Positions 20,062 to 64,000 of a DNA stretch of 64,000 nucleotides are shown one piece after another. The stretch lies in NCBI GenBank assembly GCA_951406725.2, contig OX597819.1, positions 119,908,001-119,972,000 of the forward strand. The letters are read 5' to 3'. Position 1 is the first letter of the stretch, and the number at the start of each line of letters is the position of its first letter. Position numbers and translations under genes: made by a program. Source of the stretch: Octopus vulgaris (lineage: Eukaryota). The notes under the pieces were generated by a model. It was not told the DNA's origin. It saw only the letters and a program-made list of their open reading frames with translations, and ran no database searches.

Positions 20062-20080
20062 ATATATATATATATATATA

Positions 20081-21996
20081 TAATAGAAATATTAAAATTA
20101 CTAAGTTTCTCTAAAAGAGAACAACGGCAGCGTTCCCGGAAAATAATAGTTATCGCCATACTAATATGGCATTCTTATAAAAATAAGAATAAAGCTGTCC
20201 GCTTATTAGCTCCATGAGGCCATCGCCTTAAGTTAGCTATTTGATACACAAACTGTATCCATATAACCTTTGAACAAGGGAGGTCAGTCGCTCCACACTA
20301 CTTGGCCGGCAGCTACAGACGCGTTTCGGGGTATTGCCCCTTTTCAATGCAGCGTAGCCAGACCAGTAGGTGTCGCTTCTGACAATCTCTGTTCAAAGGT
20401 TTTATTTACCTAGCTTCGGTGGGATACATCCACTTGTTTTCAATAATAGAAATATTAAAATTACTAAGTTTCTCTAAAAGAGAACAACGGCAGCGTTCCC
20501 GGAAAATAATAGTTATCGCCATACTAATATGGCATTCTTATAAAAATAAGAATAAAGCTGTCCGCTTATTAGCTCCATGAGGCCATCGCCTTAAGTTAGC
20601 TATTTGATACACAAACTGTATCCATATAACCTTTGAACAAGGGAGGTCAGTCGCTCCACACTACTTGGCCGGCAGCTACAGACGCGTTTCGGGGTATTGC
20701 CCCTTTTCAATGCAGCGTAGCCAGACCAGTAGGTGTCGCTTCTGACAATCTCTGTTCAAAGGTTTTATTTACCTAGCTTCGGTGGGATACATCCACTTGT
20801 TTTCAATAATAGAAATATTAAAATTACTAAGTTTCTCTAAAAGAGAACAACGGCAGCGTTCCCGGAAAATAATAGTTATCGCCATACTAATATGGCATTC
20901 TTATAAAAATAAGAATACAGCTGTCCGCTTATTAGCTCCATGAGGCCATCGCCTTAAGTTAGCTATTTGATACACAAACTGTATCCATATAACCTTTGAA
21001 CAAGGGAGGTCAGTCGCTCCACACTACTTGGCCGGCAGCTACAGACGCGTTTCGGGGTATTGCCCCTTTTCAATGCAGCGTAGCCAGACCAGTAGATGTC
21101 GCTTCTGACAATCTCTGTTCAAAGGTTTTATTTACCTAGCTTCGGTGGGATACATCCACTTGTTTTCAATAATAGAAATATTAAAATTACTAAGTTTCTC
21201 TAAAAGAGAACAACGGCAGCGCTCCCGGAAAATAATAGTTATCGCCATACTAATATGGCATTCTTATAAAAATAAGAATAAAGCTGTCCGCTTATTAGCT
21301 CCATGAGGCCATCGCCTTAAGTTAGCTATTTGATACACAAACTGTATCCATATAACCTTTGAACATATAACCGAAGCTAGGTAAATAAAACCTTTGAACA
21401 GAGATTGTCAGAAGCGACACCTACTGGTCTGGCTACGCTGCATTGAAAAGGGGCAATACTCCGAAACGCGTCTGTAGCTGCCGGCCAAGTAGTGTGGAGC
21501 GACTGACCTCCCTTGTTCAAAGGTTATATGGATACAGTTTGTGTATCAAATAGCTAACTTAAGGCGATGGCCTCATGGAGCTAATAAGCGGACAGCTTTA
21601 TTCTTATTTTTATAAGAATGCCATATTAGTATGGCGATAACTATTATTTTCCGGGAACGCTGCCGTTGTTCTCTTTTAGAGAAACTTAGTAATTTTAATA
21701 TTTCTATTATTGAAAACAAGTGGATGTATCCCACCGAAGCTAGGTAAATAAAACCTTTGAACAGAGATTGTCAGAAGCGACACCTACTGGTCTGGCTACG
21801 CTGCATTGAAAAGGGCAATACCCCGAAACGCGTCTGTAGCTGCCGGCCAAGTAGTGTGGAGCGACTGACTCCTTGTTCAAAGGTTATATGGATACAGTTT
21901 GTGTATCAAATAGCTAACTTAAGGCGATGGCCTCATGGAGCTAATAAGCGGACAGCTTTATTCTTATTTTTATAAGAATGCCATATTATATGGCGA

Positions 21997-22003
<7 letters not shown>
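20081..22003. mobile_element. Retrozyme-like array: ~3.5 direct copies of a 363 bp unit, then ~1.75 inverted copies, in (TA)n
   Basis: Unit starts at 20081, 20444, 20807, 21170; inversion junction ~21366-21371; one hammerhead per unit; no ORF. Confidence 0.88.
20312..20353 (-). ncRNA. Type I hammerhead ribozyme, U3:A8 core variant (also 20675-20716 and 21038-21079 on -, 21437-21478 and 21800-21840 on +)
   Basis: GCTGCA-TTGAAAA-GGGG caata CCCC-GAAA-CGCG-TC^TGTAGC; palindromic stem III ACGCGT; stem I extends further. Confidence 0.82.
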
Positions 22004-22040
<37 letters not shown>

Positions 22041-25153: not shown

Positions 25154-25423
25154 CCAGTATTTTTTTTGCTAGTTCATTTTGCCTCTTTGCCTTCTCTCCT
25201 GGTACTGTATGAACATTTAATGTAGTTTTTGAGTCAGGTTTTGGCTGATATTTCCAGTGTGGTGGTATCTCTTTATATTCCCTAAAGTATTACTTTAATA
25301 TATGTATGTGTGTGTGTGTGTGTGTGTGTATAAGAAATTAAAAAAGGAAAATACGCACACTTACATAGTTATAATATAATTTTTAATATATCGACCGGTT
25401 TCGCTATCGCTATTAAAACTAGT

Positions 25424-25727
25424 TTCACCTGTGCCTCTGAGAACCTGATTTATGTAATAAACTGCTCGGTTTGCGGACACCGGTTATTGGACAAACGAGT
25501 ATGACCTTGAGAAAGAGAACAATTCTACATAAGTGCAAATCCGTTTCCTGTAATACAGACAAATTCCCCTCAGTGAACACATAGAAAAATGTGCAGGTAA
25601 CATCAAACCAAATTTCACCGTCTTCCCTTTCTACCAGTGCAAAGACGCAATCACTCAATTGGAACGTTTAAATAAAGAAACCTTTTTCATCGAAAAATAC
25701 AAAACACGTCTCAATATGCACTCATAA
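25424..25727 (+). pseudogene. PLE GIY-YIG endonuclease remnant
   Basis: FTCASENLIYVINCSVCG..IGQTSMTLRKR...PLSEHIEKC...FYQC...RLNKETFFIEKYKTRLN (frameshifted). Confidence 0.85.
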
Positions 25728-26004
25728 CCAACTTTTATCTTTTTACATATTTCAATTCACGATTACATCACTGTACATAAATCCTCTACTAAACAAGGTT
25801 TTTGAACACATATATAATCCCCACCCATTACCGAAAGCTGAACAGTTATCTACCTTACCCACAACAATAACAATAATAATGACAACCAATTACCTCCCTT
25901 TATTTATCTACTTGTGATGTCATTGACTCGTGAATTTCATCACACACAACATGGACCAAATTTCTTCTTAAGAAAAAATATATATTCAAATAATTAAAAC
26001 ATAT

Positions 26005-26037
26005 TATCATGAATAGCGATAGCGAAACCGGTCGATA
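26005..26037 (+). ncRNA. Minimal PLE hammerhead, A3:U8 core variant
   Basis: TATC-ATGAATA-GC gata GC-GAAA-CCGG-TC^GATA; palindromic ACCGGT. Confidence 0.6.
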
Positions 26038-26154
26038 TATTAAAAATTATATTAAATCTATGTAAGTGTGCGTATTTTCCTTTTTTAATTTCTTATATAC
26101 ATTACAACTCACCACGTGGGGATAATCGAAGTTCCTCTTTTCTGTTACTACTAT

Positions 26155-51922: not shown

Positions 51923-51958
<36 letters not shown>

Positions 51959-52127
51959 CTGTGTGGTAAGTAGCTTGCTTAATAACCACATGGGTTCATT
52001 CCCACTGCGTGGCACCTTGGGCAGGTGTCTTCTACTATAGCCTCGGGCCGACCAAAGCCTTGTGAGTTGATTGGGTAGATGAAAACTGAAAGAAGCTAAT
52101 CGTATATATGTATATATATATATATAT

Positions 52128-52968
52128 ATAACATAAGGGGGATCAGCCATCTGAATGTGGCTAGGGACAGGGCGGGTTAGTGGGGGGGGTTACTGATGCA
52201 TTTAGCCCCAGGCGATCATCGACGTCACCAGAAGGACCGACACCATCTCGGTGTCCTTGCCAGCCTGCAAAGGGAGATCAGCCTCCCCGAAGATACGGAT
52301 ACTAAATACGGACCGGTTTCGAGGTATTTGCCTCTTATCAACGCATGGTAAGTACCGTTTTTCGTTGAGGGACTTCCTCTACAGGCTGGATATATATGGA
52401 TTTTCACAGTAACCACAGTCACTGATGTGCAAAAACCGTTCAACAACAATAATAAATCTCTGAGCGAGATATAAACAGTAACTGCTCTATAACATAAGGG
52501 GGATCAGCCATCTGAATGTGGCTAGGGACAGGGCGGGTTAGTGGGGGGGGGTTACTGATGCATTTAGCCCCAGGCGATCATCAACGTCACCAGAAGGGCT
52601 GACACCATCTCGGTGTCCTTGCCAGCCTGCAAAGGGAGATCAGCCTCCCCGAAGATACGGATACTATATACGGACCGGTTTCGAGGTATTTGCCTCTTAT
52701 CAAAGCATGGTAAGAACCGTTCTTCGTTGAGGGACTTCCTCTACAGGCTGGATATATATGGATTTTCAAGGTAACCACAGTCACTGATGTAGAAAAACCG
52801 TTCGACAACAATAATAAATCCCTTCTGGTGACGTTGATGATCGCCTGGGGCTAAATGCATCAGTAACCCCCCCCACTAACCCGCCCTGTCCCTAGCCACA
52901 TTCAGATGGCTGATCCCCCTTATGTTATAGAGCAGTTACTGTTTATATCTCGCTCAGAGATTTATTAT

Positions 52969-52972
<4 letters not shown>
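52128..52972. mobile_element. Retrozyme-like array: ~1.9 direct copies of a 361-362 bp unit plus ~150 bp inverted arm
   Basis: AACATAAGGGGGATC at 52130 and 52491; inverted segment 52821-52970; one hammerhead per unit; TA flanks. Confidence 0.86.
52295..52358 (-). ncRNA. Type I hammerhead ribozyme, U3:A8 core variant (second copy 52657-52720)
   Basis: ACGG TACT tacca TGCG-TTGATAA-GAGG caaata CCTC-GAAA-CCGG-TC^CGTA ttt AGTA t CCGT. Confidence 0.82.
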
Positions 52973-53027
<55 letters not shown>

Positions 53028-54093: not shown

Positions 54094-55498
54094 CATATAT
54101 GTGTATGTATGTATAAATGTACGTATATATACACACACCTATATATATATATATATATATATATACGTGTTTGTGTGTGTGTGTACATATATTTATATGC
54201 TTGCATATATATGTGAATGTGCGTATGTGTACATATGTGTATGTCCATATGTGCGTGTGTGTGTGTATGTGTCTGTGTGATGGTATTATTTTCTATATTT
54301 TCAGATTTATGTAGCTTATCTCTGTATATGTTTAAGTGTTTATGTTATATTCATACATAGATTTTTCCTAAATTGCTATTTTTCTTTGCTATTCATTCCA
54401 GAAAGACTCTTAGACTCAGAATCAACTGATGTTTTATTTTCCTATATTCGTTGCTTTACAGTCTAACATTACGCAATATATCTTATTCAAAAGGAAAACG
54501 AACTTCTTTATTGATTCCTATGTATAGTCTTATGATTAAAAAACATCTTATTAAATTCTTCAAAGTTCTTTTAGTACTTAAATCCAAATAATAATAGTAA
54601 CGTTGATTCATATTCATTTTTCCGTAAGGAATATTTTTTCTCAAAAGATAAACCGCCGTTGGTTTGTTTATTATCTTTTACATCTAATTGGTCCATTAGT
54701 ACTTTTTACAAAATAATACTAATAACTGGTTGTCATTCATAGTTATTCATATCTCTATAAATTTCTCGTGTAAATAAAAGAAAAAATCGTTTTTGCTTTA
54801 AAGTCTTATTGCTCCTAGTTTGTTTACATTTATTTCACCAAAAAAATCGGTATGTTAGTACATTTAATCGAGATAATAATAGCAACCGTTATTCAGTCTA
54901 ATTTTTATCTTTTAGCTATAGAAATATAGGAAAAAACCACTGTCATTAGAAAAGTACATATCGCCCTTACTTTGTTTATATGCATACATTTCGTATAAAA
55001 TTTTACTTTTTAAACTACCTTAAATAGATAGAAAACACACGGTGTTACAAATACAAATTTACATTAATGATTTAGCTTACACAGTTAATTTTGTTTAAAT
55101 GTAATATTTAATAAAATAATATTTTCTACATTTATTTCATAAAAGCAAACTTTAAAACTAGATATTGCTTTCAAATGTTGATACAAGGTCAACAATTGCG
55201 AGGAAAAGGGTGGGTAAGTCTACTACTTAGAACCATGTGCTTAAATGGTAAGTATTTTATTATCCTTTGAAGTATATAATGCAAAATGACTCTGTGGAAT
55301 TTCAACTGAAAACGTAAAGATGGACGAAATGCAGTTTGTCCGGCGGGCTTTCGATTCTGCCCAATTGCCGCTTTTTTTTTTTTAATTTCAAGTCTATCTT
55401 TCCGATCTTTAGGGCAGCGATCTGGAAGAATTGTTACCACACTGAGCAAAACCCAGCGGCTTCTGTCCGTCTTTACGGTCTGAGTTCAAATGCTACCA

Positions 55499-62985: not shown

Positions 62986-63243
62986 TTGTTTATTTTTATG
63001 CGTTTTGTTTTTATTTATTTTTTGTGTCTCTTAATATGTTTTGCTACAATTGCTTTTCCTTTGCTGCCGATCCGTTCGTTCGCCCTCTCCCAATCGAACG
63101 TTCGCTTTCCGCCCGCGCCTGGGCAGGGTTTTGTTTTTTCTTTTCGTTTCCACTTTCTCGCGCCTCCTTCCTCGCATCCGACCCCCGGCCTCGTCTTCGT
63201 TTTCTCTTCGCAGCCGAGGACCCAGTCAGTCGCGTACCCATCG

Positions 63244-64000
63244 CAGCCCCCTCCTTTGCCAACCTAGTCATGGGATATCTAGAAATCAGTCTGTATCGTA
63301 AGGTTCTAGAAAGATATGGCAGCCCTTTCTCCCTCTACATAGAAAACAACTGGAAGAGATACCTAGATGACTGTTTCATTCTTTGGCATGAAAATATAGA
63401 GAAACTCAAAGAATTCCACGCAATTTTAAATGGACTGGACGTAAACATCCAATTCACGATGGAATATAGCCAGCAACAACCCCCCTTCCTCGACATCCTC
63501 ATTAAGAAATCTAATAACGTAATAAAAACAGATATATACTACGGATTCCAAGCAATATCTACCATTCAATTCATGCCACCCCAGACACACCAGAATGATT
63601 ATCCCCTTCAATCTAGCAAAAAGGATATGTACTATAGTTTCTAATGCAAACACCAGAGACACACGACTGCATGAACTAAAAGATACACTCATCACCAGGA
63701 ACTACCCACCTTCACTAATTGGCATATGCATTCAACGTGCCCTTCAACTCAACATCCAGGAACTCAAACATCTCAAATTAAAGAAAAATTTACAACCAAA
63801 AGCCTTACCATACATCTCCACACACAACCCTCTCAACAAGGAAGCCTTCGACACCATCCTCCAAAACATATCCCTGCTATAAAAGGACCACTGAATGAAC
63901 TTAATCCCCCAAACACACACGATCATAAAAAGCAAGAGACAGCCCAAATCAATGAAAAGTCTCGTAACACAAGCCCGAATACGCTCTTCAACACTGAAGC
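63244..64000 (+). pseudogene. Penelope-like element reverse transcriptase C-terminal half, running off the window
   Basis: APSFANLVMGYLE, WKRYLDDCFILW, IQFTME, PFLDILI, TDIY; after a frameshift YLPFNSCHPRH..IPFNLAKRICTIVS..L..RNYP. Confidence 0.9.

Follow-up and report, generated by a model that had tools for sequence, protein, structure and literature searches.

A non-coding 362-bp tandem repeat of Octopus vulgaris whose units each bear a U3:A8 hammerhead motif: a probable non-LTR retrozyme, probably copied by Penelope-like elements

The window analysed here is a 64,000-nucleotide stretch of the Octopus vulgaris genome (assembly GCA_951406725.2, contig OX597819.1, forward-strand positions 119,908,001 to 119,972,000), and all coordinates are counted from its first letter. 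Positions 52128–52972 hold one full 362-bp unit, a 5′-truncated second unit and an inverted 152-bp arm, flanked by (TA)n tracts (Table 1). Tandem Repeats Finder reports a period of 362 with 1.9 copies and 96% matches at 52127–52820. Over their common ~331 bp, copies 1 and 2 differ by 12 substitutions and one indel. Positions 52821–52972 form an arm in inverted orientation and do not represent a third tandem copy; the arm has the sequence of copy 2 save for one base in a homopolymer run and two bases at the end of the tail. The longest ATG frame inside the element encodes 51 aa, and there are no LTRs, the flanks being (TA)n. The locus is a slightly decayed copy of a minor family, with private substitutions and probably no host role. 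A very abundant repeat at 51955–52100, which we take to be SINE-like, stops in the left (TA)n tract where the element inserted.

Table 1. Features of the 52 kb locus, in window coordinates.
Feature	Position	Strand	Details
Left (TA)n target tract	52102–52127		Adjoins the 3′ end of copy 1
Unit copy 1, full	52128–52489	−	3′ end at 52128, the first of two preferred end sites
GCCA-N8-UGGC hairpin (helix 11)	52145–52165	−	Directly upstream of the first 3′ end site; kept in both lineages
Bulged stem I of copy 1	52294–52358	−	5′ strand 52342–52358, 3′ strand 52294–52310
Hammerhead core 1	52311–52341	−	U3 52341, C17 52311; U3:A8; 4-bp helix II, CAAAUA loop
Palindromic helix III hexamer ACCGGU	52312–52317 (copy 1); 52674–52679 (copy 2)		Predicted pairing between copies
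45-nt “tail”, bounded by both preferred 3′ end sites	52445–52489	−	Also 52928–52972 on +; as defined in the available text of PMC8557442 and PMC11167929
Unit copy 2, 5′-truncated	52489–52823	−	Unit positions 29–362; 96% identity to copy 1
Hammerhead core 2	52673–52703	−	U3 52703, C17 52673; core sequence as in core 1; adjacent G2.1U at 52704
Inverted 5′-truncated arm	52821–52972	+	Unit 255–362 plus 1–45; stops at the second of the preferred 3′ sites
Right (TA)n target tract	52972–53024		Tandem Repeats Finder

Both units carry the same hammerhead core on the minus strand, UUGAUAA GAGG-CAAAUA-CCUC GAAA CCGG UC, starting at 52341 and 52703. The features of a type I hammerhead are present: UUGAUAA, GAAA and GUC in both units, a Watson-Crick 3:8 pair, an NUH site and, from folding and alignment, three helices of which helix I is open and helix III is stable only between copies. 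This agrees with a sequence-only reading of the stretch, which had described here a second ~362-bp U3:A8 unit with a UUGAUAA core, a 4-bp stem II and a CAAAUA loop. From the hammerhead consensus, core 1 is predicted to be cut between 52311 and 52310. U3 and A8 are retained in all 42 family motifs, drawn from 30 partly overlapping loci. The pair is a described natural covariation (available text of PMC3088659 and PMC4209133), and Perreault et al. 2011 (PMC3088659) state in vitro activity for natural hammerheads with this compensatory core pair. Rfam returned no hammerhead match at the locus, neither at the gathering score nor at E values up to 10, presumably owing to the variant core and the short helix III; such a match is a database proxy and not a defining property of a type I hammerhead.

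Helix III forms at most two pairs within one unit, and the ACCGGU hexamer self-pairs at −8.3 kcal/mol. According to the available text of PMC4209133, a dimer is the accepted mode for hammerheads with such a short palindromic helix III. The unconstrained minimum-energy fold of the two-copy transcript pairs both hexamers and forms a double hammerhead (−176.8 kcal/mol free compared to −176.7 forced), and the monomer fold beats 100 of 100 shuffles (z −3.4). When the sequence is folded singly, one hairpin (columns 93–110) competes with a long stem I extension. The sequence-only reading had also pointed to several substitutions between the copies, one of them beside the core in stem I of copy 2 and predicted to weaken it. 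This change, 52342 C compared to 52704 A, is G2.1 to U on the RNA strand of copy 2, and it is private to that copy (U2.1 in one of 42 family motifs, G2.1 in 40). The calculated energies likewise predict a weakening: stem I of an intact paralogue reaches −14.1 kcal/mol, compared to −11.0 for the 5′ strand of copy 1 with the site of copy 2 and only −6.4 for the mutated 5′ strand of copy 2 with the site of copy 1. Because each half of the predicted double hammerhead combines the 5′ strand of one copy with the cut site of the other, the copy-2 lesion should impair cleavage at the copy-1 site and not at its own. At stem I positions 52305/52667 and 52353/52715, both window copies depart from the paralogue majority, each with a different base; two such double changes are not expected at this divergence.

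The family at 52 kb is small. A genome-wide collection of paralogues, which that reading had proposed as a check, recovered about 40 family cores: the core pattern has 47 exact genome matches, of which 40 come from the 52 kb family and 7 from related families (hand count). The pattern is non-random, since the reversed control gives no match. Full units at 92–97% identity occur on many contigs among the best 40 of 1,851 candidates in a DNA search of the 2.8-Gb genome. The copies are dispersed over at least 20 contigs, and their truncation and inversion points differ from copy to copy. Seven copies on C31 (L003, L004, L007, L008, L011, L013 and L023) share common flanks and, as these are identical, are segmental duplicates of a single insertion. 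In two DNA-like sequencing runs, the depth of one family-specific contig exceeds that of the unique flank contig ~28-fold and ~17-fold, ratios loosely consistent with tens of family copies.

At the 3′ side of these copies, 32 of 34 ends lie at unit positions 357–362 or 41–45, two sites 45 nt apart, and 23 of the 34 adjoin ATAT. The tally covers 22 distinct loci, after removal of overlapping loci and of all but one C31 segmental duplicate; these loci are the best full-length hits, a choice biased towards long copies, though not towards these particular ends. The 5′ ends vary freely, and copies are 5′-truncated and often inverted. In 9 of the 12 loci having two outward 3′ ends, each of the two end sites is used once (hand count). 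The 20 kb family, also a tandem family of the window, shows the same arrangement, 19 of 23 inverted loci (25 distinct loci) ending once near 280 and once near 343, two sites 63 nt apart (hand count). Target duplications of ~9 bp are found at L010 and L014, two copies outside microsatellites. In the available text of PMC8557442, EN+ Penelope-like elements (PLEs) are recognised by partial tandem copies, a truncated arm in inverted orientation, (TA)n targets and a tail that may be present at one end; the accessible part of PMC11167929 explains this tail as the distance between two internal start sites of reverse transcription. The end pattern of the 52 kb family is this published “tail” signature. 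Classical twin priming on a single RNA was considered for the arms and rejected: the 3′ end of the inverted arm is fixed, independently of where the other arm stops.

The head-to-tail 362-base non-coding repeat, with its U3:A8 hammerhead motif in each unit, is very probably a non-LTR retrozyme, predicted to act as a double-hammerhead cutter and likely copied into (TA)n by the reverse transcriptase and endonuclease of a PLE. The unit would likely be a non-autonomous passenger of these retrotransposons. In the proposed cycle, read-through transcription would produce multimers, in which neighbouring ACCGGU palindromes are predicted to pair as a common helix III, so that each half cuts after GUC and releases a 362-nt monomer. 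By analogy with coral, mussel and axolotl, a host ligase may then circularise the monomer. The copy ends suggest that a PLE protein nicks AT-rich DNA and that reverse transcription starts at either of the two internal sites 45 nt apart. These starts would often occur once per strand, giving 5′-truncated tandem arms that stand head to head with their 3′ ends outward, as at 52128–52972. The window copy has since gained private substitutions.

Candidate sources of the required proteins are present in the genome. An 850-aa frame combines an RVT_1 match, a CX4CXXC linker and a weak C-terminal GIY-YIG match (E 0.0037, under the cut-off), features that suggest a Neptune/Nematis-like PLE by the available published description. 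Many intact 781-aa GIY-YIG frames represent a second PLE family. The 3′ regions of these PLEs carry putative U3:A8 hammerhead-like motifs (638 exact matches compared to none in the control; 18 of 30 loci), with short or weak helices. Two abundant PLE families (L140:5181–5520; L116–L139; L163–L186) combine U3:A8 motifs in the 3′ region with a pair of alternative 3′ ends adjoining (TA)n; in one of these families, helix II is only 2 bp long and an extra U precedes U3.

The presence of this core in PLEs, one of which also has ACCGGU, is what might be expected if the unit were a pseudo-LTR that had come loose from a single PLE family and multiplied locally as a minisatellite, and not an independently mobile RNA, a route proposed for Xenopus retrozymes (available text of bioRxiv 10.64898/2026.07.22.740005). 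We regard this origin as improbable, given that the copies lie on at least 20 contigs with truncation and inversion points of their own and that the unit has no homology to the PLE 3′ regions examined. The tail profile beat shuffles in none of 8 PLE 3′ regions, and among 30 GIY-YIG loci it found no homologue, its sole strong hit lying on the opposite strand and being read as a separately inserted retrozyme. By BLAST, 29 of 30 PLE loci likewise lack a unit-like 3′ region, and L115 has an adjacent A-like copy. The PLE loci sampled for these comparisons cover few of the PLE families of the genome. A PLE fragment beside L087, considered as a pseudo-LTR link, proved to be a neighbouring insertion.

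The sequence-only reading had further proposed that the 52 kb unit parallels the family at 20 kb in size and structure with no obvious primary similarity elsewhere, and that this reflects conservation of an RNA class. The 20 kb family has the core UUGAAAA GGGG-CAAUA-CCCC GAAA CGCG UC, with 1,327 exact genome matches compared to none in the control. Its locus in the window (20080–22000) is more than a tandem array, comprising 3.5 minus-strand units and an inverted 1.8-unit arm (21370–22005) that ends at the other tail site. When the 52 kb and 20 kb units are aligned directly outside the ribozyme, the local score is 23, equalled by 114 of 500 shuffles. In a direct comparison, then, the lack of primary similarity stands; with sister families brought in, it does not. 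A looser hammerhead pattern gives 2,116 genome matches compared to 53 in the control, and most of the 100 matches listed are C3:G8. From this superfamily 17 representatives were sampled, of which the long-branch family L155 was excluded from the alignment and trees. A profile built from eight C3:G8 families scores 81.8 bits on the 52 kb body (maximum of 300 shuffles 4.2) and 26.0 bits on the 20 kb body (maximum 8.8).

The 16 remaining representatives align colinearly, both end sites included, and a 48-pair structure is paired in 92.7% of their cells, compared to 33–46% in slid controls. None of 500 shuffles reaches this value, although related rows inflate that control. The pairs of the structure fall in stem I, at positions 3 and 8, in three hairpins of the body and in a long-range helix that encloses the GCCA-N8-UGGC hairpin and the first end site. 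Two-sided changes occur in 25 of the 48 named pairs; because the alignment itself yielded the structure and its rows are related, this covariation is supportive and not a probability. The parallel in size and structure is supported, with structural correspondence outside the core; a structure shared without common ancestry, or an unnamed RNA class, is not, since the families are diverged homologues and fit the described non-LTR retrozymes (PMC7229834). On the sequence evidence, the 52 kb and 20 kb families are distant homologues, linked via the sister families. That they are instead unrelated and converged on the same size and structure would fit the chance-level pairwise score and the low score of a direct 20-kb-lineage profile on the 52 kb family (6.7 bits). 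Such convergence is very improbable and largely refuted already, because one C3:G8 profile scores both bodies above all 300 shuffles and the alignment is colinear through both end sites.

The same 16 representatives bear on whether the ribozyme still cuts. Mobilisation by PLEs would also be compatible with a ribozyme that no longer cuts, or does so only with a protein, the uncut multimer serving as template and the motif persisting as a protein-binding fold. According to the available text of PMC11167929, the hammerhead of an anole PLE needed protein in order to cut, and insertion in vitro could proceed without ribozyme cleavage; in Xenopus, one of nine predicted retrozyme dimers cut in vitro and the other eight were inactive (bioRxiv 10.64898/2026.07.22.740005, text available in part). 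In addition, both window copies are weakened in stem I, as the energies above show. However, the 3:8 pair covaries (C:G in 8, U:A in 7 and unpaired in 1 of the representatives) while core positions are otherwise invariant across diverged families, and the reported in vitro activity of U3:A8 ribozymes (PMC3088659) likewise speaks for cutting. A non-cutting or protein-dependent ribozyme is accordingly a possible but rather unlikely reading, and a unit that is cut as a double hammerhead remains the preferred one.

The core and the body of the 52 kb unit appear to have different closest relatives. By body, the closest sister (100/100) is a young family of 360-bp units whose core is C3:G8 with U4C and whose helix III is ACCAUGGU. 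This sister family (L025:2648–3007 and paralogues) has copies 98–100% identical in arrays of ~10 units. Its core reads CCGACGA (C3:G8, U4C), its helix II has U-U at the base, and the insertion at L025 lies immediately next to a copy of the 52 kb family. Grouping the 52 kb family with the U3:A8 lineage is rejected for the body (p-AU 0.019) and for stem I (p-AU 0.005). By contrast, the 52 kb core is 2–6 changes from the cores of the U3:A8 lineage and 10 from that of the sister, and with the structure-aligned core alone sisterhood is not rejected (p-AU 0.22). The core-only tree included one stem I column, which slightly weakens the swap signal. Enrichment of core sites is weak (5:3 compared to 15:46, p 0.04), and the sister family is mixed too (3:3). 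With a C3:G8 sister by body and a core close to the U3:A8 lineage, the tree implies two or more changes of core type, which either a swap or convergence would explain. Tentatively, the unit could be a chimera, in which a body and stem I of the C3:G8 lineage received the 31-nt catalytic module (U3 to C17) of the 20 kb U3:A8 lineage, possibly with one swap breakpoint at the cleavage site; retrozymes would then swap cores, and PLEs would recognise the conserved tail fold and not a sequence common to a pseudo-LTR. We consider this doubtful as it stands, and convergence of the cores stays plausible or likely since both architectures recur in the axolotl. If the chimera were real, retrozymes would exchange ribozyme cores among themselves.

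Several published systems are close to the 52 kb family, all compared here from the available parts of their sources. Non-LTR retrozymes of animals are tandem non-coding units of 170–400 nt with a type I hammerhead, and those of mussels measure 350–390 bp (Cervera and de la Pena 2020, PMC7229834). The 52 kb family fits this description as far as it can be checked in DNA, sharing a head-to-tail unit in the ~170–400 nt range, a hammerhead in consecutive units, a non-coding sequence, no LTRs and dispersed multiple copies. Of the two axolotl hammerheads described there, HHR_Amex1 (one base pair and a palindromic tetraloop, active as a dimer) resembles the 52 kb family, and HHR_Amex2 (longer helix III, U-U at the helix II base) resembles the C3:G8 sister families. 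In contrast to those retrozymes, the 52 kb family has a U3:A8 core (the terms C3U and G8A are absent from the main text of PMC7229834), and is low in copy number; the PLE tail and inversion signature is likewise not described in the available text.

The Cercyon PLEs of Schistosoma mansoni have minimal hammerheads with the U3-A8 variant, which is recorded in ~1,300 schistosome PLE motifs (available text of PMC4209133). They share with the 52 kb family the U3-A8 covariation, a palindromic helix III, the dimer model and opposite-strand copies 100–700 bp apart. The 52 kb ribozyme, however, is of canonical size (6-bp helix I with a bulge, 4-bp helix II, CAAAUA loop) and lies in a short tandem unit without a reverse transcriptase frame. 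With EN+ PLEs and their non-autonomous derivatives, the family has in common partial tandems, an inverted 5′-truncated arm, an optional tail, (TA)n targets and two internal start sites (available parts of PMC8557442, PMC11167929 and bioRxiv 10.64898/2026.07.22.740005). The tail measures 45 nt in the 52 kb family and 63 nt in the 20 kb family, compared to 30–40 in EN+ PLEs. Pseudo-LTR homology, present in 24 of 57 Xenopus families in the available text of the same preprint, was not found for the 52 kb family among the PLE loci sampled. The U3:A8 pair is the one known from PMC3088659, and in this one genome it is fixed in whole retrozyme lineages (the 1,327 exact 20-kb-type cores) and in autonomous PLEs.

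In the available texts of PMC7229834 and the Xenopus preprint (bioRxiv 10.64898/2026.07.22.740005), the mobility of animal retrozymes has been argued on the grounds of co-occurrence and of similarity to pseudo-LTRs. In the 52 kb family, the PLE two-start-site signature is read directly at the copy ends, and a covarying fold around these sites is kept across diverged families. Together with the intact PLE frames, this makes both trans-mobilisation and RNA recognition testable with a published assay (PMC11167929, available in part). A literature search that covered subscription journals incompletely returned no account of these families, from cephalopods or octopus or elsewhere, or of the tail and inverted end signature in retrozymes. 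Lunse et al. reportedly treat dimeric PLE hammerhead variants; that paper or the supplement of PMC7229834 may already cover U3:A8 retrozymes. The genome offers natural C3:G8, U3:A8 and apparently A3:U8 cores, and its more than 1,300 U3:A8 cores would escape CUGANGA-based searches.

Assembled contigs from putative RNA runs cross the predicted cut site and reach a depth of 13–31 over the ribozyme region; they match paralogues and not the window copy, and their depth on the unique flank 54259–55400 is zero. As such contigs cannot distinguish ends, strand, circles, multimers or carried-over DNA, they are not counted as RNA evidence. A 359-nt contig with a depth of ~140 (run X1 record 5, X2 record 14) resembles the C3:G8 sister family and is near one unit length; it could be a circle or a collapsed tandem.

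Two further PLE fragments lie in the window. On the plus strand at 63243–63990 there is a fragment of another PLE reverse transcriptase, ~55% identical to the 850-aa protein, and at 25382–26150 (+) a 3′ fragment whose GIY-YIG region is 58–65% identical to it. The 3′ region of the latter contains AUGAAUA GC-GAUA-GC GAAA CCGG UC, an apparent A3:U8 hammerhead-like core that is also found in L177; an A3:U8 motif with ACCAUGGU is present in L047. No description of an A3-U8 hammerhead was found in the literature searched. The helix III palindromes of some retrozymes and PLEs agree (L047, L140, window 52312–52317 and L025), with ACCGGU matching ACCGGU and ACCAUGGU matching ACCAUGGU. Such matches would allow mixed retrozyme-PLE dimers, and the probability of a chance match is high (1 in 4, 1 in 16).
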